Positions 5,207 through 56,502 of a stretch of DNA of 64,000 bases are shown here, piece by piece. This DNA comes from Candidatus Omnitrophota bacterium. GTDB lineage: Bacteria; Omnitrophota; Gorgyraeia; Zapsychrales; Fredricksoniimonadaceae. Where the stretch lies: contig JAGWKL010000009.1 in assembly GCA_028865345.1 (NCBI GenBank), positions 7,382 to 71,381 of the forward strand. The letters run 5' to 3'. Below the pieces are notes generated by a model. The model did not search any database. It was not told where the DNA came from and saw only the letters and a list, made by a program, of their open reading frames with translations. The position numbers and the translations under genes are program-made. Each line of letters opens with the position of its first letter. The stretch's first letter is position 1.

Positions 5207-6462
5207 ATACGGCCCAAAAAGTCATGGTGGGCGGCGTCAACAGTCCGGTGCGCGCTTTCAAGGCCGTGGGCGGAAACCCCCTGGTGATGGCCCAAGGCCG
5301 GGGCAGCAAACTTTTCGACATCAATGGCCGCAGTTACACCGATTATTGCCTTTCCTGGGGCGCATTGATCCTGGGCCACGCCCATCCTGATGTCACGGCG
5401 GCCGTATGCAAAGCGGCCCGAAAGGGCACCAGTTTCGGCACCACAACCTCGCCTGAGATCGAAATAGCCCGGTTTATCGTCAAGCATGTGCCGTCGGTGG
5501 ACATGGTGCGGTTTGTCAATTCAGGCACCGAAGCCACGATGAGCGCGGTGCGCTTAAGCAGGGGTTTTACTAAGCGCCGCAAGATCATCAAGTTCGACGG
5601 CTGTTACCACGGCCACAGCGACGATCTTTTGGCCGTGGCAGGTTCAGGGGTGGCTTTTCTGCCGGCCTCATCAAGCCAGGGAATTCCGAAAGCCCACATG
5701 CAAGACACCTTAAGTCTGCCTTTTAATGATACGCAGACCCTGCAGCATACCATTGAACGCCATCATGCGGACCTTGCCTGCGTCATCGTAGAGCCTGTGG
5801 CCGGCAATATGGGCGTCATCAATCCGCACCTTGATTTCCTTAAAACCTTACGTGCCCTGACCAAAAAATACGGCATTGTGCTTATTTTTGATGAAGTGAT
5901 GTGCGGGCTGCGTTCCGGTCTTGGCTGTGTCCAGGCCGATCTGGGGATCATTCCCGATCTTACCTGTCTGGGCAAGATCATCGGCGGCGGGTTCCCGGTC
6001 GGGGCGTATGGCGGAAGAAGGGACATCATGAAGTGCCTTTCGCCTTTGGGCGGCGTTTATCAGGCCGGCACCTTTTCAGGTACGCCTGTTGTCATGCAGG
6101 CAGGCCTGGCCGTTTTAAAGAATTTGACCCCTAAGATGTATAAAGATCTTAACACCATCTGTGATGATTTTGTCGGGCGGACAAACCTTGTTTTGAGGCG
6201 GGCTAAGGTAAAAGCCCATCTGGTCAATTATAAAAGCATGATCAGCATCCGTTTTTCGGATAATCCTGTTGATAATTATGCCCAAGCCAGGCAGGCTTCG
6301 TCCGATAAACTTTATGCGAAATTGTTCCATCATTTATTGCGCCGCGGGATCTATCTTCCCCCGGCGGATTTGGAATCTTTCTTTGTTTCCAGCCGCCACT
6401 CGCTGAAGGACATCAATGCTTTGGGCCGGGCCCTTCAGGACTTTTTTACCGGCCGGCGTTAA
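5194..6462 (+). CDS. hemL: Glutamate-1-semialdehyde 2,1-aminomutase
   Basis: GGVNSPVRAF is present, the class-III aminotransferase fold is suggested, and the PLP lysine context is GKIIGGG. It overlaps the hemB 3' end by 13 nt. Confidence 0.9.
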   Translation: MASMNTAQKVMVGGVNSPVRAFKAVGGNPLVMAQGRGSKLFDINGRSYTDYCLSWGALILGHAHPDVTAAVCKAARKGTSFGTTTSPEIEIARFIVKHVPSVDMVRFVNSGTEATMSAVRLSRGFTKRRKIIKFDGCYHGHSDDLLAVAGSGVAFLPASSSQGIPKAHMQDTLSLPFNDTQTLQHTIERHHADLACVIVEPVAGNMGVINPHLDFLKTLRALTKKYGIVLIFDEVMCGLRSGLGCVQADLGIIPDLTCLGKIIGGGFPVGAYGGRRDIMKCLSPLGGVYQAGTFSGTPVVMQAGLAVLKNLTPKMYKDLNTICDDFVGRTNLVLRRAKVKAHLVNYKSMISIRFSDNPVDNYAQARQASSDKLYAKLFHHLLRRGIYLPPADLESFFVSSRHSLKDINALGRALQDFFTGRR

Positions 6463-7143: not shown

Positions 7144-8376
7144 ATGCACAAACGCATTTCAATCATCGGCGGGGGAATATCGGGCCTGGCTGTTTTGCAT
7201 TATTTGAAACAGCGCTTCGGGGACGATGCCGATATCTCTCTTTTTGAGAAAGAAGCGTCCGCCGGCGGCACAGTCCGCAGCCTGAAAAAAGATTCCTTCC
7301 TCTTTGAATGGGGGCCTGACGGGTTTTTGGACAATCAACCCGTTACGTTGGAGCTTATCGCGCAACTGGGTCTGGAAGACCGGCTCATCGGGGCCAGGCC
7401 TGAGGCCGCCACGCGTTATATTCAAATCGAGGGAAGATTATATCCTGTCCCCTTGGACCCTGTTGGTTTGATGCGTTCGCGGTTATTGTCCTCCCATGAT
7501 AAATGGTCCTTGATCAAAGGCCTGTTCAAAAGAAATATTTCCACCGACGTCTCCATCTATGATTATGTCAGCCGGCGCTTTTCTTGCGGGATCGCCGAGG
7601 CCCTGGTCGATCCTTTCATCAGCGGGATTTATGCCGGGGACATCCGGCGGCTGCATATGTCCGCTTTTCCTAAATTCAAAGGCCGGAAGTTCAAAAAGAG
7701 CCGCATGTGTTCTTTTAAAGGGGGCATGGGAGAGATCATCGAAGCCCTGGCTGACCGTTATAAAAATTGTATTCAAACAAGCTCGCCCGTAGCATCAATC
7801 CCGCCCGATATGGACATTACGGTTGTGGCGACACCTGCTTACGCCGCGGCCAGGATCGTTAAAAACGTCAATCCTGACCTGGCCCAAATCCTTGGCCTTT
7901 TCCCCTATGCGCCGGTGGCGGTGGCGGGCCTGGCCTTTAAACGCGATTCTTTCAAAAAAATTCCTGACGGCTTCGGATACCTGGTCCCTTCCAAGGAGCA
8001 TAAAGAGATTTTGGGAGTGCTCATCGAAAGCAATGTATATTCCCATCGGGCGCCGGAGGGCCATGTGATGCTGCGTGTCATTCTGGGAGGCATGCATCAT
8101 CCCCAGACCATCAACGACGCGCAAGAGAGGGTCCTTGTCAAAGCAGTCAAAGAGATCGATTCTGTTTATGGGCTGGTTTCCAATCCCATTGAAGGTTTTG
8201 TCAAATTTTGGCCCCAGGCCATCCCGCAATACGAAATAAATTATCCGCAAAACAGGCGCTCCATTGCCCTGGAATGCGCCAAAACGCCGGGACTGCATTT
8301 ATGCGCCAATTATTTGGACGGTATTTCCTTCAACGACTGCATTGCCGCTGCCAGGTCACTGGCGCTTGCTATATAG
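7144..8376 (+). CDS. hemY: HemY-family FAD-dependent protoporphyrinogen/coproporphyrinogen III oxidase
   Basis: The N-terminus is ISIIGGGISGLA. It also has SGIYAGD, WPQAIPQY and a C-terminal LDGISFNDC, all collinear with B. subtilis HemY. Confidence 0.75.
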   Translation: MHKRISIIGGGISGLAVLHYLKQRFGDDADISLFEKEASAGGTVRSLKKDSFLFEWGPDGFLDNQPVTLELIAQLGLEDRLIGARPEAATRYIQIEGRLYPVPLDPVGLMRSRLLSSHDKWSLIKGLFKRNISTDVSIYDYVSRRFSCGIAEALVDPFISGIYAGDIRRLHMSAFPKFKGRKFKKSRMCSFKGGMGEIIEALADRYKNCIQTSSPVASIPPDMDITVVATPAYAAARIVKNVNPDLAQILGLFPYAPVAVAGLAFKRDSFKKIPDGFGYLVPSKEHKEILGVLIESNVYSHRAPEGHVMLRVILGGMHHPQTINDAQERVLVKAVKEIDSVYGLVSNPIEGFVKFWPQAIPQYEINYPQNRRSIALECAKTPGLHLCANYLDGISFNDCIAAARSLALAI

Positions 8377-9564: not shown

Positions 9565-10117
9565 CACGCGCATGGGGCGGGACAAGGCCCTGCTTTCCTT
9601 TCACGGCAAACCTCAGGTGGAATACGTTGGCGGCCTCCTGCAACAATTCTGCAAAAAAGTTTTCCTGTCGAAAAGGGCCGACCAGCCGCCGTACAAGGCC
9701 TTTGACTCCATCGATGATGCTCCTGAATTTTCCGGCCAGGGCCCTTTAAGCGGGATTTTATCTGCCATGAAGGAATACCGGGGCCATGACTGGCTGGTTA
9801 TGGCCTGTGATCTGCCCCTGGCGGGCGAGGAAGCGGTCCGAACGCTTCTCGCCGGCCGGGACCGCAGCAAAACAGCCACGGCTTTTATCAGCACCCATGA
9901 CCAATTGCCTGAACCTTTATGCGCCGTTTGGGAAGGGCATGCCTACGCCGCCATCTTAAAATCATTCAACGAAGGCATTCATTGCCCGCGCAAAATCCTG
10001 CTCAAAAGCGATGCCGCTTTGGTCAGCCAAACAAATCCGCATTGGCTGGACAACATCAACACCCTTAAAGAGTACGAAGCATTAATAAAGACCGCGCCGT
10101 TTGTTTTTTCCCGTTAA
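9512..10117 (+). CDS. mobA: Molybdenum cofactor guanylyltransferase
   Basis: LILAGGYSTRMGRDKALL is the MobA signature. The start was chosen at the internal ATG of MKATNHKLFGL. The track ORF begins at 9470. Confidence 0.85.
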   Translation: MKATNHKLFGLILAGGYSTRMGRDKALLSFHGKPQVEYVGGLLQQFCKKVFLSKRADQPPYKAFDSIDDAPEFSGQGPLSGILSAMKEYRGHDWLVMACDLPLAGEEAVRTLLAGRDRSKTATAFISTHDQLPEPLCAVWEGHAYAAILKSFNEGIHCPRKILLKSDAALVSQTNPHWLDNINTLKEYEALIKTAPFVFSR

Positions 10118-10152
10118 ATCGTATATACTTACATTTAGGATGCTTGATCGAT

Positions 10153-10254
10153 AATAGCAAACCCCGCGTAAGCGGGGGACGCAAAGCTATAGGGTCCTTT
10201 TGAGGGATAGGACAGCCTGGCCGCCGAAATAAGCTTCGAAGACCACGCCCTATT
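10153..10254 (+). promoter_or_regulatory. Candidate c-di-GMP-I (GEMM) riboswitch in the 5' leader of the tandem-REC gene
   Basis: The sequence is AGCAAACC-CCGC-GUAA-GCGG-GGGACGCAAAGC. This reproduces the GEMM-I core: GGCAAACC, a GNRA-capped hairpin, and GGGACGCAAAGCC. A possible P1 pairs AAUAG at 10153-10157 with CUAUU at 10250-10254. Confidence 0.45.
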
Positions 10255-10319
10255 CCTTAAATCAAGCAGTTTAAGGGATAGGTTTTTTATTTAATGGGCA
10301 TCCCTGGAGGGAGGGGCGC

Positions 10320-11123
10320 TTGATGAATAAAATACTGATCGTTGATGAAAAAGAAGCCCTTGCCCGCCAAATTGAAGAGCGTCTTTCTTCGACAGGTTTT
10401 GAAATTCTTTATGCGCCGGACGGCCTTTATGGTTTCCAGATGGCCAAGGACAAAACCCCGGATCTGATCATCACCGACGCCTCGATCCCCATGATCAGCG
10501 GTTATGAGTTATGCAAGGCGATCAAGCTTGATAAAGACACCCAATCCATCCCCATCGTGGTCATGACGGAAAAACACCGCATGGAAGAAGCCTTCATGTT
10601 TTTGGGCGTCAAAGATTTTCTGGAAAAGCCCGTTAACATGGATGAATTGGAGAAAGTCGTGAGGAACAAACTCCAATTTTCCAGGATCATGCAATTGCAA
10701 AGGTCCAAGGTCCTGGTGAGCGGCAACCCGGAAGTCCTGTCAGTTTGCGAAAAACTGCTTAAACACGACAAGTATTGGATGGGGTGTTTTTGTGATAATG
10801 GCGATTCCTGTCTGGAATTGGCCGCCAGGTATTCCCCGGATGTCATCCTGGTGGATATCCTCAAGCCGGGCATGACCTCCGATGAGGTGATACGCCAGCT
10901 TAAAACACTGCCGGGACTGAAAAATAGCGTTATTCTGGCCTATTACTCCCTCTCCGGGCAGAACAAGGACTATATTGCCGTCCAGGTCCAAATGATGGAA
11001 GTCCAATACATGAAAATCCTGGCGCTCGAAGCGGGCGCCAAGGAATATCTGGGGGCCTTAAATCCCGATACCTTCCTGAAACTCATCAATATCTACCGCA
11101 GGGAATTTAACTTTATCATTTAA
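10320..11123 (+). CDS. Tandem receiver-domain response regulator-like protein with no output domain
   Basis: The N-terminal REC has a phosphoacceptor context LIITDASIPMISG and K-box EKPV. The second half is REC-like and degenerate. Confidence 0.7.
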   Translation: MMNKILIVDEKEALARQIEERLSSTGFEILYAPDGLYGFQMAKDKTPDLIITDASIPMISGYELCKAIKLDKDTQSIPIVVMTEKHRMEEAFMFLGVKDFLEKPVNMDELEKVVRNKLQFSRIMQLQRSKVLVSGNPEVLSVCEKLLKHDKYWMGCFCDNGDSCLELAARYSPDVILVDILKPGMTSDEVIRQLKTLPGLKNSVILAYYSLSGQNKDYIAVQVQMMEVQYMKILALEAGAKEYLGALNPDTFLKLINIYRREFNFII

Positions 11124-14636: not shown

Positions 14637-15154
14637 GCCGGACTGCTGACCGTTATGCCAAAGCCATTTTTGAATTGGCCCGGGAACAAAACATCCTTGA
14701 AGCTGTGCAGGAATCCATGACTGAGATAAGAACGCTTATCATCACCTTGGAGGGTTTCCGGAGGTTTTTGGGCAATCCCTTGCTTTCTTACGAGGAACGC
14801 CGCGCTGTCCTGACCAGCCTCTTCGAGGGAAAAATCCCCGAGTTGGCCTTAAGGGCCCTTTTATTCATCACGTATAAGAACCGTTTGCCCATCTTGAGGG
14901 ACATCATCGAATCTTTTGACAGCTTATACCTGGCCGGCACCGGCACGATCAGGGCCTATATCAGGACGGCATTGCCCATTACGGACCAGGACAAAGCCTT
15001 GATCGACGGGCAGCTGCATGATAAATTCCGCCAACGGATGCTGACCCGCTGGTCCGTGGACGGCTCGCTCATAGGGGGCTTTAGGATTTTTATTCAAGGA
15101 GTCATTTACGATTATAGTTTTAAGAACCAGTTGAACCATTTCTTGCAACTATAG
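14633..15154 (+). CDS. atpH: ATP synthase subunit delta (OSCP)
   Basis: The N-terminus ADRYAKAIFELAREQN matches OSCP. It is placed between atpF and atpA. Confidence 0.8.
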   Translation: MSRTADRYAKAIFELAREQNILEAVQESMTEIRTLIITLEGFRRFLGNPLLSYEERRAVLTSLFEGKIPELALRALLFITYKNRLPILRDIIESFDSLYLAGTGTIRAYIRTALPITDQDKALIDGQLHDKFRQRMLTRWSVDGSLIGGFRIFIQGVIYDYSFKNQLNHFLQL

Positions 15155-47085: not shown

Positions 47086-48300
47086 TCATGGCTTAACGCA
47101 GCTAGTCAGCTCCTTCGCCCATTGTTTTCCTTTCGTATTTAATAAGTTTTCCATACCTTTTAATCTGTCTTGAGTCCTTTCTTTTAGAGATAGTTCTTTA
47201 ATCAAGGTAAGATGTCTTTTTAAGAATGCTATAACTAAATTTAAGCTTCCCTTTTCCTTTGAAATTATGTTTCCCAATCGTTCACCATTGTAGTCAAAGC
47301 AACTAAAAAAAGCTTGGTACTTTCTTTTGAGAAATAGCTCTTTTTCGATAGTTACATCATCGTAAAAAAAATTGAAAATTTTTATCAAATCTGAATTTCT
47401 GAAATATCCAACCTGGTAAGCCCTTGCATCTGCAAAAGCGTAAATTGGTTGAACGCTCGTTTTAGCATAATTGGACAGGCTTTTACATATGCCTTCAATA
47501 AACAGTTTAGAGCCTGAAACAAAGCTTACGCGCCATCGATTAGATGAAAAGCTGATGCTGCCGTCACCATCAAAATATCCGCGAATAAAGTGACTATATA
47601 AAATTTCAGGTAAAACAGGAAATTTATCATCTAAGCTTTTATTAGGCGTTAACCCCAAGGCAAGCAAGTCATTAATCATGACCTTATTGCCTATAGTTAA
47701 AGTATATAACTCTTGTTTAACTTGTCTAGTAATTTTGTGCTCTGAATCCATTAAATCTCTAATTTTATATAAAATTTCCGGTTCTTTTTGACTAATGGAA
47801 AATTGATTAAGCTGGTTGCCCAAATTCCCATCTGAATAGATAAAACCAAGCACATAGGCCATTTCTGGCGTTTGCTGTTTAAAAAAAGCCTCGTTTATTG
47901 AACTGAACCCAACATTTTTGCCTTTCTTTTTTGCCTCTCCCCTTGCTGCTGATTTACTCCGTATAGCAAGGCCGTACTTTCTAAGCAATAATAGAATATA
48001 AGCCCTTGAACAATTATGAAGCTTAGCAATGTCCCCCATCGACATTTTCTGTTCACAATATAATTCCTTGAGCCGATCTTCAGTTAATTGAGAAATGATG
48101 GCGCTTTTGACCCGTTGTTTTTGAGTTGCAGAAATCTTTTTTTTAATACTCGACAAATGCTTTAGATAAGACCCATGATCATTTCTATCAAAATCCCCTG
48201 TTCCTCTGATTACAAATTTATGGTAACAGTTTCGACAATAGCCCTTGGAATGATGTGGCTTATTCTGTAAGCATCCCTTGCAAGTGGTCAAAGTTTGCAT
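47086..48300 (-). CDS. Free-standing double-motif LAGLIDADG homing-endonuclease-like protein with N-terminal Zn ribbon and HTH
   Basis: It has CKGC...CRNC, the HTH MSMGDIAKLHNCSRAYILLLLRKYGL, and LAGLIDADG motifs YVLGFIYSDGNL and IRGYFDGDGSISF about 100 aa apart. Confidence 0.6.
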   Translation of the reverse strand: MQTLTTCKGCLQNKPHHSKGYCRNCYHKFVIRGTGDFDRNDHGSYLKHLSSIKKKISATQKQRVKSAIISQLTEDRLKELYCEQKMSMGDIAKLHNCSRAYILLLLRKYGLAIRSKSAARGEAKKKGKNVGFSSINEAFFKQQTPEMAYVLGFIYSDGNLGNQLNQFSISQKEPEILYKIRDLMDSEHKITRQVKQELYTLTIGNKVMINDLLALGLTPNKSLDDKFPVLPEILYSHFIRGYFDGDGSISFSSNRWRVSFVSGSKLFIEGICKSLSNYAKTSVQPIYAFADARAYQVGYFRNSDLIKIFNFFYDDVTIEKELFLKRKYQAFFSCFDYNGERLGNIISKEKGSLNLVIAFLKRHLTLIKELSLKERTQDRLKGMENLLNTKGKQWAKELTSCVKP

Positions 48301-48336: not shown

Positions 48337-48654
48337 CTACTTAACAGGCTGTAATTCATAATGTACGCCTTCATTTTCTTGTAATAGATGGATCACTTCA
48401 AAAAGATTATTAGCTGTTGGATTTCCGGTAACACTAAACATGCGCATCAGGCTTTTGGGGTCTTTATGGGTCAATCTAGACAGTTTTTCAAAGCCAACAG
48501 TCGCATTAATATAATCACGTAACAACGCTTTACCTGTTTTAATATCTCCTGAAAGCATGGATTCAATACTTTCACGAAGAATTCCCTCACGGAATTCCTT
48601 GTCTTGTAAGGCTCGAGCCTGAACTGTTTCCTTGAAATTACGCGTAATTGTCAT
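48337..48654 (-). CDS. higA: HTH antitoxin (HigA-like addiction-module antidote)
   Basis: It is a 105-aa Cro/C1-type HTH located downstream of the toxin. Confidence 0.7.
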   Translation of the reverse strand: MTITRNFKETVQARALQDKEFREGILRESIESMLSGDIKTGKALLRDYINATVGFEKLSRLTHKDPKSLMRMFSVTGNPTANNLFEVIHLLQENEGVHYELQPVK

Positions 48655-48659
48655 CGCTT

Positions 48660-48983
48660 TTAACCTTTTTTACGCCGTTTATATTCATCCCAAAGCAAAT
48701 AGGCATGGTCGATATCTTTTTGTTGACGTTTCTTTGTTCCGCCCCCTAAAAGAATGATCAATTTATCCCCATCTTTACCAATATAAACCCGGTAACCAGG
48801 CCCCCAGTCAATAATCACTTCTTGAAAAGCACCGTTAATCGGTTTTAAATTCGAACAATTCCCCTGCTCAATACGAGTCAAATAAACATTCACTTTATTT
48901 GCTGCATGAGCATCAAGGCTATTAAACCAGTCAGCAAACGGGCTTTTTCCATCTATAGTTATATATTCCTCAACTATGATCAT
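48660..48983 (-). CDS. higB: RelE/HigB-family addiction-module killer protein
   Basis: It is 107 aa, toxin-first, and separated from higA by a 5-nt gap. Confidence 0.7.
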   Translation of the reverse strand: MIIVEEYITIDGKSPFADWFNSLDAHAANKVNVYLTRIEQGNCSNLKPINGAFQEVIIDWGPGYRVYIGKDGDKLIILLGGGTKKRQQKDIDHAYLLWDEYKRRKKG

Positions 48984-49015: not shown

Positions 49016-49167
49016 ATATGCAAATTAAATTGATTAAAAAATTGGGGGAATTTGATTGTTTTTATTGCTGTCCGCTTGGGGGGGAAGATCGATGAAAAGA
49101 TTATACAAGCCAAACCACCGCCGCACCAGAGAAAAACTACCTTGCGACTTCATCTCAAGGGCTGGCC

Positions 49168-50100
49168 TCAAGAAAAGGAGGCACAAATCCCCTTCGGGGC
49201 TTTATGTCCCCTTTTCTTGTGCGGGAAATGGCTGGGCCCGTAGGGCCGTAACCAGTATTTGAGCTTGCACTTTCTTACCCGTGTACCATACCTGAAATGA
49301 TCGGCGAACTGGTGGATGAGATACCAGAACTCCTTTTCCGTCAGGTCCTGTTTCATGGCGTTGACCATCCTGGAAGTGATCACCAGTCTCTTGGGGTTGG
49401 CCGGTGTCCAGTGGTCAAAGGTCAAATACCATGGACTGTGCTCATCAAATAGATCCAGCTCCATGCCGGTGTAATAGCAGATATAACCGTACTTGCGTAT
49501 ATAGTCCCAAATGGCTTTTCTGGCCTTTAAGGGGAAACGTTCCATGACCATGCGCTTGGCGATGGTCGAACACTGCGGGCAATATTTGTGCCATCTATTG
49601 GCTGTGGGCTGGCGGCCGCAACCGGCACAACACCGCTGTCCATGAAGGAGCTTTGGCAATCTGTACCAATGTTTCAGATGCCTCTTTTTGACCTTCAGAT
49701 GTTTTCTTCTGTGATCGTCGAGTGCGATCACATAATACCTAAACTCTTTTTGGGTCATGTCCTGCTTCATGTCGTTGACGATGGCGGCACAAATGACAAT
49801 CTTGATGGGATCTCCCGGCCTCCAATGGTCAAAATCAAGATACCAGGGGCTTGTTTCATCGTCTAACTCTAAAGCGACTTTTATGTAATAATCCCTATAG
49901 TATTGGGCACGGATATATTCCCGTACGCCCTGCTGGGCCTTGGCAGGGAATCTCTTTCTATGCATCCGGCGGGTTGTTTTGAGGCAGTCCCGGCAATAGA
50001 TGGACCAGTTGGAAAAGACCTTTTTGCGGCCGCACATGCAGCAGGTTTTTAAAGGTTTTCTGGAGAGGTGGTGAGCTTTAAGGGGCATATTGACATGCAC
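49168..50100 (-). CDS. Internally duplicated Zn-ribbon protein with HNH-like DHW-P...N-MKQD motifs (two ~150-aa repeats)
   Basis: Repeat 1 has CCMCGR..YCRDC and SPWYLDFDHWRPGDP...VNDMKQDMTQKEF. Repeat 2 has CCAGCGR..YCPQC and SPWYLTFDHWTPANP...VNAMKQDLTEKEF. Confidence 0.55.
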   Translation of the reverse strand: MHVNMPLKAHHLSRKPLKTCCMCGRKKVFSNWSIYCRDCLKTTRRMHRKRFPAKAQQGVREYIRAQYYRDYYIKVALELDDETSPWYLDFDHWRPGDPIKIVICAAIVNDMKQDMTQKEFRYYVIALDDHRRKHLKVKKRHLKHWYRLPKLLHGQRCCAGCGRQPTANRWHKYCPQCSTIAKRMVMERFPLKARKAIWDYIRKYGYICYYTGMELDLFDEHSPWYLTFDHWTPANPKRLVITSRMVNAMKQDLTEKEFWYLIHQFADHFRYGTRVRKCKLKYWLRPYGPSHFPHKKRGHKAPKGICASFS

Positions 50101-51212: not shown

Positions 51213-54200
51213 TTATTGGATAAATTTCAGAAGATTGGGAATGGGCGTAACGCCCACTATGACGCCATACAACCCCTGGGCTTTTAAAAGCATGGCCCCG
51301 AGCGCCTTATTGCTGACGATAGGGCCGAACAAGGAGCCCTGGCGTTGGAGGGTTATATTTGTAAATTTGATACCTCCCGGGTTTGCCATGGCCGCGTCGG
51401 CCCCCTTTAATGTTTGCAATTTGTTTTCGAGGTCTCTAACAAGCCCGCCGACAAACCGCCTGAGGCGGGCTTCTTTTTGCTCCACTGACAATACTTCATC
51501 ATTGTCCAAATTCATGATCCAATCATGCAAGATCCCCGATGCGCCGGAATGGGCAAACAGACCCTCCAGAAACTTTTGGAAATTGCGCCCGAGATAATAT
51601 GACAACAAGGCATTATAGCCAAACCTGTTTTCCAAACTCTTCTCCTCTGCTATAAATGCCTTGATCCCGCTGCCCTTTTCCTCAAAGACCTCCGGCACTC
51701 CAATGACGCTGAACTTGAACGATTTGACGCCGTTGCGCCCCGTATTCAATATCCCATTGATGGTTTGCTGGTCGTCCCCTAAGGCCTCAACGATCCTTTC
51801 CTGTGTATCTTTGTCCAGTTTGGCTTCTCTCTTGCGATGCTCAATGACCATTTCATATTCCTTCAGATAAGCCGCTGAAGTCAGCAAATAATAGGCGATC
51901 CGGTTTAATCGCGGCCCCAAGGCCGCGTTTTGGTAAAACTCCAAATGCTCCGGATCTTTGTTCCATAACCCGATCAATGGTTTATAGACCGTATCCAGCC
52001 ACGCATGGGAAGTGTCTTGTCTGGGCATCAGAATATTCCCCTTGCCGGGGTGGTTGAAATCCACAGGGATGCCCTGATCAGCCAGAACACCGGTCCTCCA
52101 TGTTCCTGAACCCACGTATGCCCCATTGGCTGTTCCGTCTTCTTCCCATGCCCCGTTAGCCTCGTTATCATCCGAGTCCTGGATCTCCACATCGAGCGCC
52201 GCCAAAAAAAGGATCTTCTCTTCCCGTGTGATGCTCTGGACAAACTGAAAACTTCCCGGAAAATCCTGGGGCCTCTTGTTTTTTTCATCAGCGATCTTGT
52301 TTTCCAAACTTTTCAATTCAGCCGCAAGTTTTTCGCTGGCTTCCGTATGCTGGTTGTTCCCCAATAAAACCACGTCATAACCGAGTTGAACCAACATCCA
52401 AATGTTGTCGTCCGTCAAAGCCCTTTGCCGGCCGGCCTTTTCCGGCACAAGGCGGCGGACATAGCCCAACACCGGCCTGTCCAAATCCACGTGCACAAAG
52501 CCGCCGTTGGCGGTCATGATCCCGGCCGCGTTAAGCCTTACTTTGCTTGCTCTTTTTGTCAATGCCTCCTCGCGGGCCGTCGGCCTTTCAAAATCAGCGT
52601 TCTGGGGGATCACATTTTCCTGCTGGAGCTTTTTGAATTCTTCACGGTAGACGGCCGCCATTTCTTCCGGCACCGCGCCGTTTGTCACGGCAACCAGGAC
52701 CGAATTGGGATCATTGCCCCTCATGCGGTCCGCATGGCTGTTGGCCACCGCCCCGAAGAAATCGGCCAGTCTTCCGCCTCCGCTGGTATAATCGATATAC
52801 TGGACCCCGCGCCTAAACGCATTGATATAAAAATCCTTGATCCCCATCATGTGTTTTAGAAAAACATCCACCGCCCATTTAACGTCACCGTTGCCTCCGC
52901 GGTTTAAATCGGTATGCGTGGTATATGCCCATACAATATTTTTAACCGCATCATCCGAGCCGAACCTGCTCATCGTGACCGCTTCCAACGGCCCGAATTG
53001 CCCGTCATTACCATGTACGATGGCCGGTTCCCAGGTCTGTCCCTGCTGTTCCATGGCCTGCCTTCTGTTCGTTTCCAGCCGTTTGATCAACTCGGCGCTG
53101 GCAATGTTCAAAAATGCCATGGACTCTTCTTTACTGACAGGGTTGTTTTTTGCGCTGTAGTTATAAAGCATCTTTGTATAATATGAACTGCCGTCCGCCT
53201 GGACATCGCGGATCAGATAGGTCGCGATACCGTTCTTGTCGATGCCCCTGGCCACCCTCACGTGCACCTGTTTATACCCATTTCCGTCGCTGTTACCGAT
53301 CTGGATATCAAAATCATCAAAATCATTATTCAGGTCCCTGATACCCTGATTGGGGGCCGCATAATCCAGGGGATTGCCGTTGATATCTAATTGATAGTCC
53401 GGTTCGATATAGTTGACATCCGCGCCCAGATCATGCATCCCTTTTCCATGGAATTCCATGACCGGGCCCAGGCCCCCTGTCCAGTAATGGATCTCTGCGG
53501 CCAGCATGTAGATCGCCCGCCCCTGCAAATTCGGCCTTTTGTCCGCCAGCCATGTCTTACGGTCAAAAATGCGGTTCATCAAAAAGATCTTATCGACCAA
53601 TTCCGGCTGTTTTTTGCCTTTGTACTTTTTTTGAAGGGCCTTGATCAGATCGTCTTCCTGAGCTTTGGACAACAGCGTGATCGCCTTTAATACCGGCCAT
53701 GCCGACTGCACAGGATATAACCTTTGGGATTGCACATAAGCAGAATATTTGTCAATAAAGGCATAAAGCCCTGCCCGGTTAAATTTCCCTCTCTTATTCA
53801 AAAGCCCTTTAAGCTCATCCAAAAGACCCCAAGGCCTATTGAGGTCATACCAGTTGGAATATGATTCGGCCGGGGATGGATTAAAAACGACCTGGATATC
53901 CACGTCATTTTCTGTGCCGGCAGCCATGGCCAGGTCGCCATCGGAAGCCCTGGTAAAATGCACGGGCTGATCCACAAAACCGCCCGAAAAATACTTGCGC
54001 GGTATGGGCTGGTTGGAAAAACGGTCCGTCTCTTCTTTGATAAAGTTGAAAACGCCTCTTTTATAAGAAGCCAGATAACGGTGATAGATAAGCTCCTTGT
54101 TTTTGGGGTTATTGAGGTCGATCCCCGAGACTTTATCGCGGCCGGAAAAATCTTTATTGAGGATGGACTGTTTAAAAGCCTCCTGGTACCATTGCGCCAG

Positions 54201-54356
54201 GATGAGCGAATAGAACACCTGTCTTACTCTCGCAAAATTCTTATTTTCATTCACGGCTTTTTCTACGGCAGGAAGCAGGACCTCACGTAAAACCTGTCTG
54301 GATATGTCCTTGGTCTGGGCATTGCCGGCTTGTCCATGGCTTGCATTGCCAATCAC
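51213..54356 (-). CDS. Large (1047 aa) protein with a diverged alpha-glucan phosphorylase (GT35)-like core and an N-terminal extension of about 300 aa
   Basis: TGGLGPV...GKGMHDLG resembles SGGLGVLAGDHLKSASDLG. HGNDGQ resembles H.NEGH. AYTTHT resembles AYTNHT. The C-terminal GGIKFTN resembles the PLP-Lys GNMKFMLNG. Confidence 0.4.
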   Translation of the reverse strand: MIGNASHGQAGNAQTKDISRQVLREVLLPAVEKAVNENKNFARVRQVFYSLILAQWYQEAFKQSILNKDFSGRDKVSGIDLNNPKNKELIYHRYLASYKRGVFNFIKEETDRFSNQPIPRKYFSGGFVDQPVHFTRASDGDLAMAAGTENDVDIQVVFNPSPAESYSNWYDLNRPWGLLDELKGLLNKRGKFNRAGLYAFIDKYSAYVQSQRLYPVQSAWPVLKAITLLSKAQEDDLIKALQKKYKGKKQPELVDKIFLMNRIFDRKTWLADKRPNLQGRAIYMLAAEIHYWTGGLGPVMEFHGKGMHDLGADVNYIEPDYQLDINGNPLDYAAPNQGIRDLNNDFDDFDIQIGNSDGNGYKQVHVRVARGIDKNGIATYLIRDVQADGSSYYTKMLYNYSAKNNPVSKEESMAFLNIASAELIKRLETNRRQAMEQQGQTWEPAIVHGNDGQFGPLEAVTMSRFGSDDAVKNIVWAYTTHTDLNRGGNGDVKWAVDVFLKHMMGIKDFYINAFRRGVQYIDYTSGGGRLADFFGAVANSHADRMRGNDPNSVLVAVTNGAVPEEMAAVYREEFKKLQQENVIPQNADFERPTAREEALTKRASKVRLNAAGIMTANGGFVHVDLDRPVLGYVRRLVPEKAGRQRALTDDNIWMLVQLGYDVVLLGNNQHTEASEKLAAELKSLENKIADEKNKRPQDFPGSFQFVQSITREEKILFLAALDVEIQDSDDNEANGAWEEDGTANGAYVGSGTWRTGVLADQGIPVDFNHPGKGNILMPRQDTSHAWLDTVYKPLIGLWNKDPEHLEFYQNAALGPRLNRIAYYLLTSAAYLKEYEMVIEHRKREAKLDKDTQERIVEALGDDQQTINGILNTGRNGVKSFKFSVIGVPEVFEEKGSGIKAFIAEEKSLENRFGYNALLSYYLGRNFQKFLEGLFAHSGASGILHDWIMNLDNDEVLSVEQKEARLRRFVGGLVRDLENKLQTLKGADAAMANPGGIKFTNITLQRQGSLFGPIVSNKALGAMLLKAQGLYGVIVGVTPIPNLLKFIQ

Positions 54357-55111
54357 AGTCTTTGGGCCTGATAATCTTCGTCCAGCATCACCTTCAAATG
54401 GGCATGAAGGATATAAACCGTGTCCCCCTTTTCATACACCGTCGCCTTCTCGGGAAGTATCCATATCTTATTGATGACATTAACCGGGATCTGGGTGACG
54501 CCGAATTTCCGGTAGGCCTCATCATAGACCTTATTCCAAAACTTCTTGCCCAGACGGCTTTCAGGATAAATAAGAGAGGCCCCCACCTGCTTGAGGATAT
54601 AATCTTCAGCCAGAAGGTCACGGCCTAGCTGGGTCTTGTTCAATACATCGGGAATGATATGGTTCTTCTGGACCGGTGATAAGTTGACCCAAAGGTCTTT
54701 TTCAGGCACCGCCAAAGCCGCCAGGAAATAATTCACCAGGCGCTGTGACGTTTTATGAAAATCTTCAGCGTTTAATCTTTGGTCACCCGGATCAACGATA
54801 AAATCAAAAAGGAAAGGATCATCAGGATGTATCTTCAGGCCTTTGATCAAAACAGGCCTGAAAGGTGGACTTAAATTGACCCTGACCCCTGGTTTTGGCA
54901 AAAGAAACGGTAAGGTGGAAAAATCATCGGACGCCGATTGGGCCCGGGAAGACGGCAGATATATTGACGAGGCGATAAAATTAAATATTATCCAAATGCA
55001 TAAAATGCGTCTCACATTTGTCATGGAAGCCGCCGGCATAGTTAATAATTGAATAATAGGGCCTACTGAAAAGATAGCATATCGAAGATTAAAAAACAAA
55101 TTTTCAAACAA
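54353..55111 (-). CDS. Hypothetical exported protein co-transcribed with the large phosphorylase-like gene
   Basis: Its stop overlaps the downstream ATG. The N-terminus has a hydrophobic signal/anchor segment. Confidence 0.5.
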   Translation of the reverse strand: MFENLFFNLRYAIFSVGPIIQLLTMPAASMTNVRRILCIWIIFNFIASSIYLPSSRAQSASDDFSTLPFLLPKPGVRVNLSPPFRPVLIKGLKIHPDDPFLFDFIVDPGDQRLNAEDFHKTSQRLVNYFLAALAVPEKDLWVNLSPVQKNHIIPDVLNKTQLGRDLLAEDYILKQVGASLIYPESRLGKKFWNKVYDEAYRKFGVTQIPVNVINKIWILPEKATVYEKGDTVYILHAHLKVMLDEDYQAQRL

Positions 55112-55506: not shown

Positions 55507-55929
55507 TCAAAGATCAAACGATTTTAGCAATTTGGCCGTGGGGTATGTTTCTAAATGAGGGATATTTTCAAAATCTTTATCATTGGACCAAATAGGTATG
55601 CCCTTAGCAAGTGCTAAAGCTGCCAGAGGAATGTCATCCATATCTCTTTGACCAATATATGTTTTAGCCTGAGTTAATTTAGATTTATATTCATCTTCTC
55701 CAATTATCTTGACTGGCAGCATTTTAAATTGCACCCATAAAGCTTTAAGATCGATATGGTATTTTGCGCCGAGAAAAGGAAGATAATCCTCAACCTCTCC
55801 GGCATTAAACTCGGTGGTCAGGATTTCAAGGTTTGTTCGGGTAAAAACCTTCAGCGCGGCATGACCAATAACTGCAGAAAGTAAAACATTACTGTCTGCT
55901 GCGACGCTTTTTAAAGACTTTGAAGTCAT
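55507..55929 (-). CDS. vapC: PIN-domain toxin
   Basis: It has an N-terminal acidic DSNVLL and later conserved Asp residues. Its length is typical for VapC. Confidence 0.75.
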   Translation of the reverse strand: MTSKSLKSVAADSNVLLSAVIGHAALKVFTRTNLEILTTEFNAGEVEDYLPFLGAKYHIDLKALWVQFKMLPVKIIGEDEYKSKLTQAKTYIGQRDMDDIPLAALALAKGIPIWSNDKDFENIPHLETYPTAKLLKSFDL

Positions 55930-56155
55930 CTAAAATTTCTTTCTCAGTTACTTTTTTCTGACTTAATGCTGAAGCGATTCTGCCGCCCATTTGAGCCACG
56001 AATTCCTTCTTTAACTCAATAGGAAGCTTGGCAGATTCTTCTAAAGGCAGAAAACAGCCCACCATTTTGCCATGGTTGGTCACCAAAACCATTTCTCCTT
56101 CTTTGCCATACTCTGCCAGGGAACTTCTGAATTCACGAATAGAAGCTAATTTCAT
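55889..56155 (-). CDS. vapB: Antitoxin of the VapBC/Phd-YefM type
   Basis: It is an 88-aa protein immediately upstream of, and overlapping, the PIN gene. The start was taken at the internal ATG of MKLASIREF. Confidence 0.55.
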   Translation of the reverse strand: MKLASIREFRSSLAEYGKEGEMVLVTNHGKMVGCFLPLEESAKLPIELKKEFVAQMGGRIASALSQKKVTEKEILDDFKVFKKRRSRQ

Positions 56156-56250
56156 AATTTTTACCTCCCGAGCCCAACTATAGCACACAAAATAAAATGT
56201 GTCAAATATGTGTACACATTATTCTTGTGTTTAGGCTGTAGCTTGTCCTT

Positions 56251-56502
56251 TTACTTGGCCAATCTATTGTAAAGCCAGGCAAAGACAGCACAACCGATAC
56301 CGGCATCCAAAAAGGCCCAGGCTGCGCCAAAGATGCTTCCGGGAATAGTTGCAGAGTAACCGATATAGAAAGTCCCCAGCGCGGCCACAAATTTGGCGCA
56401 ATAACCGCAAGTCATCGCCGAAATACCCATGATGAAAACCCCGGCACTCCAAAGGATGCCCCCTGCCAGCCCAAAAGCTTTTATATCCAGTTTTCCGTTC
56501 AT
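56251..56502 (-). CDS. Small Gly-rich two- or three-TM membrane protein
   Basis: The product is 83 aa and hydrophobic. Confidence 0.45.
   Translation of the reverse strand: MNGKLDIKAFGLAGGILWSAGVFIMGISAMTCGYCAKFVAALGTFYIGYSATIPGSIFGAAWAFLDAGIGCAVFAWLYNRLAK

Follow-up and report, generated by a model that had tools for sequence, protein, structure and literature searches.

The window analysed here is a 64,000-nucleotide (nt) stretch of contig JAGWKL010000009.1 (positions 7,382 to 71,381; assembly GCA_028865345.1) from a Candidatus Omnitrophota bacterium. It contains an open reading frame (ORF) at 49168..50100 on the minus strand that encodes a tandemly duplicated zinc-ribbon/HNH protein of 310 amino acids. 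Translation begins at a GTG codon at 50100 and the stop codon occupies 49168–49170; an alternative ATG start at 50088 gives the 306-residue NCBI protein P0001, which is otherwise identical and is annotated as a 'hypothetical protein' from a Candidatus Omnitrophica metagenome-assembled genome (MAG). The gene belongs to a minus-strand run of accessory genes with a G+C content of 0.41–0.45 against approximately 0.50, in which it is preceded by genes for an AHSA1-family protein and a small membrane protein and followed by a RelE/ParE toxin with its antitoxin and a LAGLIDADG protein. Within 3 nt of its stop codon lies a conserved intergenic element of approximately 60 nt.

An internal tandem duplication

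The two halves of the protein share 58 of 130 residues (45%) in a gap-free alignment (BLASTP E 1e-42), and their Smith–Waterman score of 316 compares to 31.8 ± 5.3 (maximum 63) in 1000 shuffles (z = 54). The internal tandem duplication is real, as had been proposed in a sequence-only reading of this DNA. The two modules of that reading stand, whereas their length of about 150 amino acids does not, the repeat unit being approximately 134 amino acids long; the motif strings it listed (CC.CGR...YC..C, RFP.KA, SPWYL.FDHW.P and VN.MKQD.T.KEF) are all found in both halves. Self-alignment and module alignment delimit an N-terminal module (residues 17–150; 49651..50052) and a C-terminal module (residues 155–288; 49237..49638), the latter also defined by a model of the single module. 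They are joined by a linker of about ten residues (148–157; 49630..49659) that differs in length and sequence between homologs, and are followed by a non-conserved tail of 22 residues (289–310; 49171..49236) that is missing from homologs and runs into repeat-derived DNA; all of these features lie on the minus strand, as do those of the protein discussed below. Among two-module proteins, N-modules are nearest to other N-modules in 57 of 67 cases and C-modules to other C-modules in 63 of 67, which indicates that the duplication is old and that both halves have been kept. With five modules most similar to their own partner, the pattern of similarity points to mainly one old duplication, to which gene conversion or a small number of later duplications may have been added.

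An alignment of 33 two-module homologs (A1) and of the 66 modules separated from them reveals a constant order of elements: a Cys4 zinc ribbon, two helices, a hairpin, a strand, a second strand, a helix, a long helix and a basic end. The ribbon has the spacing C-x2-C-x11/12-C-x2-C and is formed by C20, C23, C36 and C39 in the N-module (49984..50043) and by C158, C161, C174 and C177 in the C-module (49570..49629), all eight of which are invariant among the homologs. The two-helix region has the consensus R-M...R-F-P..A....W.Y-I-R-K-Y-G, the hairpin reads 'C-Y-Y-T-G-x-x-L', the segment after it is 'S-P-W-Y-L-x-F-D-H-W-x-P', the core helix starts with 'x-x-V-N-x-M-K-x-D-L-T-E-x-E-F' and the basic end of the module is 'V-R-K-x-K-L-x-Y-W-x-R-x-Y'. 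The putative beta-beta-alpha cores comprise residues 87–112 (49765..49842), with D91-H92, P95, N109 and K112, and residues 225–250 (49351..49428), in which D229, H230, P233, N247 and K250 are invariant across the 33 homologs, as are F228 and M249. The window protein thus keeps the D-H pair, P, N and K as well as the four ribbon cysteines in both modules.

AlphaFold2 models the full chain from alignment A1 with a mean predicted local distance difference test (pLDDT) score of 83.4 and a predicted template modelling score (pTM) of 0.76, low confidence (pLDDT <50) being confined to the linker and the tail; the C-module modelled alone reaches a pLDDT of 88.7. Each half is predicted to contain a strand–strand–helix arrangement (87–92/101–105/106–112 and 225–230/239–243/244–250), placing H92 and H230 at the end of the first core strand and N109 and N247 in the first helix turn, followed by K112 and K250. 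The two halves may pack together, as suggested by a pTM of 0.76 across the linker, where confidence is low. Alignment and motif census single out a 'CYYTG' motif at residues 208–212 of the C-module; in the N-module, 'A-Q-Y-Y-R-D-Y-Y-I-K' replaces 'K-Y-G-x-x-C-Y-Y-T-G' (the hairpin now reading RDYYIKV, residues 69–75), a replacement common to the window protein and an 89%-identical ortholog in another MAG (locus L020).

Membership of the HNH superfamily

We accept the modules as members of the His-Me/HNH superfamily, nearest to the Cas9-type HNH_4 group and outside any defined Pfam family. The placement is derived from PHROG profile matches, sub-threshold HNH_4 matches in relatives, repeated weak matches to Cas9 HNH domains and Foldseek comparisons. 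PHROG, Pfam, NCBIfam and PADLOC profiles were searched with the window protein and its relatives, including an alignment of 31 single-module sequences (A3), and models were compared to the PDB and to the viral models of BFVD. Against PHROG the window protein matches phrog_1035 ('endonuclease VII', 2.3e-7), phrog_3322 ('endonuclease', 1.6e-5, over residues 205–270, the core of the C-module) and phrog_2255 ('HNH endonuclease', 3.4e-4). Amongst the 31 single-module sequences, phrog_1035 is matched by 12 (best 4.8e-8) and phrog_3322 by 11, and others match four further 'HNH endonuclease' PHROGs, the best at 7.8e-10 (phrog_1271, one sequence). Pfam and NCBIfam yielded no HNH match for the window protein and nothing above the E 0.01 threshold in either library. 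The 31 single-module sequences match only generic zinc-ribbon models in Pfam, plus HNH_4 at 0.048 in two, and among ten further two-module relatives P0048 scores 20.4 bits with HNH_4, for which the cut-off is 22, the match beginning at the 'C.Y.G' motif. PADLOC defence models match neither the window protein nor three single-module relatives.

The top Foldseek matches of the full chain are nearly all HNH proteins (the Cas9 HNH domain, the type II restriction enzyme 4l0k, EcoKMcrA, Cap5, the C-terminal domain of SspE and Cas5-HNH). For the single module, the best match is the HNH nicking endonuclease Gme of Geobacter metallireducens (4h9d; E 0.058, probability 0.87, template modelling score 0.55 on the target); Cas9 HNH and McrA (EcoKMcrA) come next. 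BFVD yields nine matches at E <= 1e-3, and the entries with a name, whose E-values are slightly weaker, are either HNH or homing endonucleases. Searches of PDB sequences with phmmer and profiles gave nothing significant, only weak recurrent matches to Cas9 HNH domains and to the ribosomal eL37 ribbon; Cas9 HNH domains account for approximately 12 of the 29 matches of the A3 profile (E 0.27–1), and the profile segment 'F.C.Y.tg..L......Y.tfDH..P' aligns with GeoCas9 such that the D-H pair of the C-module falls on the D-H pair of the enzyme.

Both modules have the beta-beta-alpha-metal fold that characterises the superfamily: the His at the end of strand 1 is preceded by Asp (D91-H92 and D229-H230, the pair being invariant in C-modules) and the helix carries an Asn (N109 and N247, likewise invariant in C-modules) that is a presumed metal ligand. 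By inspection, 'S-x-x-V-N-x-x-K' is the counterpart of the ordinary HNH motif 'C-x-x-C-N-x-x-K' and 'C-Y-Y-T-G' that of 'C-x-Y-C-G'. The CxxC positions of HNH_4/McrA-type proteins read C208-Y-Y-T and S243-R-M-V, so that only C208 is kept, and the homolog alignment contains no conserved Asn between H230 and N247, where the middle Asn of H-N-H would lie. This correspondence implies that the internal zinc cysteine pairs were lost in the family along with the middle Asn, that its hairpin loop became shorter and that a separate N-terminal ribbon was acquired. The HNH (His-Me) core of the sequence-only reading is upheld at the level of the superfamily by PHROG and Foldseek, but not by curated Pfam or NCBIfam models, which stay below their cut-offs; at that level the reading withstands the refutation it had set itself, namely the lack of a significant HNH-fold match together with a repeat similarity no higher than in shuffled sequences.

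Narrower assignments were considered and rejected. Membership of the T4 endonuclease VII family (Pfam Endonuclease_7) finds no Pfam match and an hhalign probability of 4% against gp49, the label of phrog_1035 being the only link. The HNH_4/McrA-type subfamily of Pfam has flanking CxxC (or CxxH) pairs and a middle Asn, which the modules lack. The match to TIGR04402 ('mobilome CxxCx11CxxC'; 15.5 bits, cut-off 70) and that to Pfam E2-Crich were dismissed as Cys-pattern noise.

The family and its predicted function

The close family comprises 45 members, all of them two-module proteins and all 'hypothetical'. A profile of catalytically intact modules (A2) retrieves 623 of 1.84 billion cluster representatives at E <= 1e-3 (218 at <= 1e-10), comprising two-module chains of approximately 280 amino acids, one-module proteins of approximately 140 amino acids and one chain of 399 amino acids (P0086). 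A single-module profile has 173 matches among 5.8 billion proteins, and the 120 listed carry no Pfam annotation and no name beyond 'hypothetical protein'. Across the 165 relatives listed in the close-family and single-module searches all are 'hypothetical' or nameless and none has an HNH or other nuclease Pfam domain, the Pfam entries being limited to three proteins (PF17032, a zinc ribbon, twice and PF27587 once). A scan of one genome per species identified 21 loci, all but one weak match in MAGs of Omnitrophota or 'uncultured Planctomycetales', typically with two divergent paralogs per genome. With no tblastn match in phage and plasmid collections and two distant relatives only in IMG/VR, the family is not typically viral or plasmid-borne. 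Within the HNH nucleases, a known kind of enzyme, it forms a new and unannotated family with a fused two-module architecture. Literature searches on tandem or double HNH proteins turned up only multimeric HNH assemblies such as Cap5, SPARHA and TasH, and no description of a fused two-HNH chain.

The fate of the two presumptive active sites differs between lineages. In a motif census of approximately 90 two-module proteins the D/E-H pair is present in both modules of 43, which include the window protein, in the C-module only of 38 and in the N-module only of seven, several of which are truncated. The N-modules of the 38 C-only proteins read S-R, S-H, G-R, S-Y or N-F at this position and the Asn is often gone, while the ribbon cysteines and the Lys are always kept. 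Relative to the 89%-identical ortholog, the ratio of nonsynonymous to synonymous substitution rates (dN/dS) is 0.064 in the N-module, 0.073 in the C-module and 0.8 in the tail. Both modules are under strong purifying selection and the tail evolves neutrally; the low ratio in each module indicates that both halves are functional.

We consider it probable that the protein is a single-chain, pseudo-dimeric enzyme, a predicted metal-dependent DNA endonuclease encoded by a stand-alone gene of a toxin-antitoxin/nuclease island. This prediction, and that of cutting of both strands, draws on the presence of D-H, P, N, K and the ribbon cysteines in both modules. The His of the D-H pair at the end of strand 1 would act as the general base, and the helix Asn followed by Lys (N..K) would hold the catalytic metal. 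A single HNH site cuts one strand, and dimeric HNH enzymes such as endonuclease VII, PacI, Hpy99I and KpnI cut two. The stand-alone form of approximately 140 amino acids would presumably be a homodimer and the fused form its covalent equivalent, with two active sites and two structural zinc ions predicted per chain of the window protein, which as a monomer may cut both strands and read an asymmetric site. Fusion would allow the halves to diverge, either towards asymmetric site reading or until one active site is lost; where the N-module is dead, the relatives may be nickases, or that half may serve for binding only.

Several points weigh against this proposal. The curated HNH models of Pfam and NCBIfam all stay below their cut-offs, every Foldseek E-value against the PDB exceeds 1e-3 and the profile matches to Cas9 HNH have E-values of 0.27–1; an hhalign comparison between the family profile and one approximate sequence each of Cas9 HNH and T4 endonuclease VII found nothing and was uninformative; and the structural Asn of H-N-H is missing together with the two CxxC pairs that flank most HNH cores. 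The packing of the modules is deduced from pTM only, and the N-module of the window protein, without the near-invariant C, T and G of 'CYYTG', may not equal the C-module catalytically. Two relatives (P0004 and P0005) lie directly after TpsB/TpsA secretion genes, which the model leaves unexplained. The absent curated matches, the missing Asn and CxxC pairs and the weak PDB fold E-values also speak for a rival reading in which the protein is no nuclease but a zinc-ribbon protein that binds nucleic acids or has a regulatory role, its HNH-like core being a relic without catalysis. We regard this as very unlikely, since D-H, P, N and K are invariant among hundreds of diverged members, which would be difficult to account for in a non-catalytic protein, and the pattern of loss is limited to one half.

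It is possible, if unlikely, that the enzyme is asymmetric, with catalysis confined to the C-module and the N-module acting as a structural or DNA-binding pseudo-nuclease, so that the protein would nick one strand or cut as a dimer of chains. The D-H pair has been lost from the N-module in 38 of the approximately 90 relatives, often along with the Asn, and never from the C-module in full-length members; the replaced 'CYYTG' of the window protein points the same way, and 4h9d, the structure that matches best, bears the description of a nicking HNH enzyme. Against asymmetry, D91-H92, P95, N109 and K112 persist in the window protein and its clade, the dN/dS of the N-module is as low as that of the C-module and both sites are kept in 43 relatives.

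The modules compare best with Cas9-type HNH domains (HNH_4, PF13395) and Gme (4h9d), their best Foldseek and PDB-profile matches, with which they share the beta-beta-alpha-metal core and the arrangement C.Y.G..L ... D-H..P ... N..K ... E, the D-H pairs aligning. The Cas9 HNH motif is DVDHIVP...NRGK. In contrast to that group, the window module has a shorter loop from D-H to the helix Asn (17 residues from H to N), lacks the middle Asn and the flanking CxxC pairs (one Cys is kept), scores below the Pfam cut-off, and adds an N-terminal Cys4 ribbon and a two-helix linker, the whole unit being tandemly duplicated. T4 endonuclease VII, which acts as a dimer, resembles the window protein as a small zinc-binding His-Me protein, and phrog_1035 with its label is the best profile match; here, however, zinc would be bound in a separate N-terminal ribbon rather than in Cys pairs around the active site, and the comparison provides no evidence of junction resolution by the window family. 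The small HNH proteins PacI, Hpy99I and KpnI have Cys4 zinc sites and require a pair of subunits for cleavage of both strands. They are absent from the Foldseek matches, their zinc sites are placed differently and the window has no adjacent methyltransferase. The relationship of single-chain LAGLIDADG enzymes (I-SceI/I-OnuI type) to the homodimeric I-CreI type is an architectural analogy only: a homodimer became a fused monomer with two diverging halves, which permits asymmetric sites and, in some lineages, the loss of one active site. The two kinds of enzyme have nothing in common in fold or chemistry, and the window protein lies outside any intron or intein.

If the proposed mechanism is correct, HNH nucleases have taken the evolutionary route known for LAGLIDADG enzymes, from homodimer to fused pseudo-dimer to the decay of one site in many lineages. 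A family invisible to current annotation now has a name and a testable mechanism, and a single chain this compact (approximately 280 amino acids), bearing a pair each of HNH sites and zinc ribbons, could serve as a scaffold where DNA is to be recognised asymmetrically or nicked.

The zinc ribbon, the intergenic element and the surrounding island

The LAGLIDADG protein (47086..48300, minus strand) matches phrog_4645 at 1.3e-44 and Pfam LAGLIDADG_3. As the sequence-only reading had noted, it begins with a Cys4 ribbon of its own (48226–48282), C-x2-C-x11-C-x2-C (C7, C10, C22 and C25), which its family conserves as 'C.GC......H.a.GYC..CY.K'. The same reading took the ribbon to be a portable DNA-targeting module specifically common to the two neighbours and fused to two different nuclease folds. 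In favour, both proteins have the C-x2-C-x11/12-C-x2-C spacing with an aromatic residue before the third Cys. Aligned with hhalign, the two ribbon families reach a probability of 85.7% (P 5.5e-6) with the four cysteines in register, the score of 26.2 exceeding those of all 120 shuffles made with the Cys columns fixed (13.4 ± 3.8, maximum 24.6; 0/120 reach it). However, a hidden Markov model of the 66 module ribbons scores the LAGLIDADG ORF of the window at 3.5 bits (E 3.5), lower than approximately 20 random reading frames of the window. The ribosomal eL37 ribbon matches the module ribbon at E 0.34 in 177,635 sequences, equivalent to a P of approximately 2e-6, and generic Pfam ribbon models match at approximately 1e-5. 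Since eL37 matches equally well and generic ribbon models match too, the ribbon is of a common type. Judged by sequence it is a widespread subtype ('kCxxCG...YCxxC') with no module exchange shown between the neighbours. No LAGLIDADG gene occurs in those relatives' loci whose gene tables were examined, and the adjacency of the two genes looks coincidental. We therefore consider the specifically shared module most unlikely and did not retain it. The LAGLIDADG protein is free-standing and has a helix–turn–helix (HTH) region; its family has more than 1000 matches, many with extra HTH_3 domains, and no entry of the protein database has its exact sequence, the nearest being 83% identical.

The element of approximately 60 nt downstream of the HNH gene (49105..49166, minus strand) has the core GGTRGTTTTTCTCTGGTGCGGCGG and reads CCAGCCCTTGAGATGAAGTCGCAAGGTAGTTTTTCTCTGGTGCGGCGGTGGTTTGGCTTG on the gene strand; it is present once in the window. 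Elsewhere it likewise consists of an invariant 19-nt centre and variable arms, with the invariant core GGTGGTTTTTCTCTGGTGC always in gene orientation. Five copies lie within the 17-kb L020 locus (6061–6121, 7776–7833, 9789–9848, 10601–10659 and 14824–14884), two in L021 (10088–10146 and 13758–13818) and one in L001 (6833–6892), and further copies occur in L041–L065. An exact-match metagenome scan with a 20-nt core retrieved 25 loci, in which an nhmmer profile finds approximately 45 copies. The L020 array, in which the element parts groups of genes on one strand, runs from a 120-residue ORF through an element, a Bro-N-like gene, an element, a tandem HNH gene with an NYN gene, an element, a truncated HNH module and an element to a group with MazG and a methyltransferase/restriction pair, an element and a 264-residue ORF. 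The truncated module (9911–10345), which comes approximately 1 kb after the complete tandem gene, has a frameshift behind 'SRLIN' and an element copy on each side, which suggests gene turnover within arrays. Other neighbours of the element include NYN, MazG-like, ORF6N/Bro-N/KilA-N, ArdA, YhcG, Fic, DUF2202, restriction-modification and toxin-antitoxin genes; the link of the element with the HNH gene is enriched, not exclusive.

The proximity raises the question whether the protein recognises or cuts the element and so helps to move or maintain gene arrays. In the window the element lies 3 nt beyond the stop codon. It is no more than 115 nt after the gene in L001, L049, L051 (twice), L056, L057 and L062, and follows the pair of tandem HNH and NYN genes in L020 and L021, with a remnant directly after the gene in L020. 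In 8 of the 25 loci retrieved by the core alone, a tandem HNH gene is alongside and ends no more than 115 nt upstream of a copy, and the genes of L051 and L056 have the element on both sides. Conversely, most copies flank other genes (NYN, MazG, ORF6N and ArdA), approximately two thirds of family genes in related genomes are without the element, and the element has neither hairpin nor covariation. On balance we regard a nuclease dedicated to the element as quite improbable. Extended to the whole arrangement, this idea would give Omnitrophota a hitherto undescribed cassette-like system with the tandem HNH protein as its dedicated nuclease, in which the element (core GGTGGTTTTTCTCTGGTGCGGCGG) would separate units of one or few genes (HNH, NYN, MazG, ORF6N/Bro-N, ArdA, toxin-antitoxin and restriction-modification). 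Recognition or cleavage of the element would lead to gain, loss or copying of units, an HNH-based counterpart of integron or homing mobility. We hold this to be very improbable. The element itself may point to an unrecognised organisation of accessory genes in this uncultured phylum.

Other explanations of the element were rejected. As a structured RNA or attC-like hairpin it has no consensus structure or covariation on either strand, RNAalifold on 43 copies giving −1.6 kcal/mol and no compensatory pairs. It differs from an integron attC site in having a central 19-nt core instead of terminal inverted cores and in forming no hairpin, and no integrase was seen near the arrays within approximately 17 kb per locus. 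By inspection, it has no frame with a consistent stop or third-position variation, as a coding fragment would, and the GG-N10-GC spacing of a sigma-54 promoter does not fit. The element has no Rfam match and no copies in viral contigs. An IS200-like Y1 transposase ORF is found at 1004–1681 of L020, and the element is not palindromic in the manner of repetitive extragenic palindromic (REP) sequences. Short hairpin repeats starting with GTCATT (GTCATTGCGAGG...CGAAGCAATC and GTCATTCCCGCGAAAGCGGGAATCCAG) crowd the same intergenic regions and flank the element in L001, L010, L020, L022, L049, L057, L062, L063 and others; the usual T-run after them makes them look like terminators or REP sequences.

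The tandem HNH gene itself appears to be a stand-alone accessory gene of Omnitrophota mobilome or defence-type islands that is not in an operon with the LAGLIDADG gene. Directly downstream of it and the element are a RelE/ParE-family toxin (48660..48983, minus strand; TIGR02683, 9.8e-26) and its putative antitoxin (48337..48654, minus strand), identified by position and a weak match to the phrog_4268 repressor. Relatives have as neighbours toxin-antitoxin, NYN, GIY-YIG, PD-(D/E)XK, ORF6N/Bro-N, MazG-like, restriction-modification and Schlafen-type genes, with no constant partner. The flanks of the 89%-identical ortholog in L020 are unrelated to those of the window except for the element. As for a homing endonuclease, the window gene is intergenic and stand-alone, and no empty site turned up, no systematic search having been made.

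One-module relatives follow a UvrD helicase gene beside RusA and an integrase. Another, P0095, is located in a conserved operon (L016 2867–8333; also L017–L019) in the order PD-(D/E)XK, HTH-WYL-WCX, HNH module (with a 23-nt overlap), a 269-residue ORF, a 237-residue ORF and metallo-beta-lactamase/RMMBL, which looks like an undescribed defence-type operon. Upstream of P0004 and P0005 are TpsB (ShlB/POTRA) and a TPS-domain TpsA (L001 1–4806; L003–L008, e.g. L005 1–2754), and it is downstream of such genes that contact-dependent-inhibition loci keep immunity or orphan genes; the window has no such pair. Interruption of the TpsA gene by the HNH gene in L003–L008 was ruled out, the downstream ORF being an unrelated CheB-CheR-PAS protein.

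A relative with 74% identity (L021) has a nearby conserved gene pair in common with the window. This pair (51213–55111, minus strand) encodes a 1047-residue protein, in which only a starch-synthase-like glycosyltransferase family 5 (GT5) domain is recognised, and an upstream 252-residue ORF without a Pfam match, and it is conserved near tandem HNH genes in L021, L025, L028 and L035. Its recurrence suggests that the island occupies a recurrent hotspot beside the pair. Further along on the minus strand, a second toxin-antitoxin-like pair, judged by eye, consists of a PIN-like 140-residue ORF overlapping a 99-residue ORF (55507–56188), and an 83-residue membrane-protein ORF (56251–56502) has DNA that is 78–80% identical to stretches in L021 and L037; from these two features the accessory island appears to reach approximately 57 kb. 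On the plus strand, at 10147–10229, is a c-di-GMP-I-GGC riboswitch aptamer (RF03167; 60.3 bits, gathering score 59) upstream of an ORF at 10320–11123.

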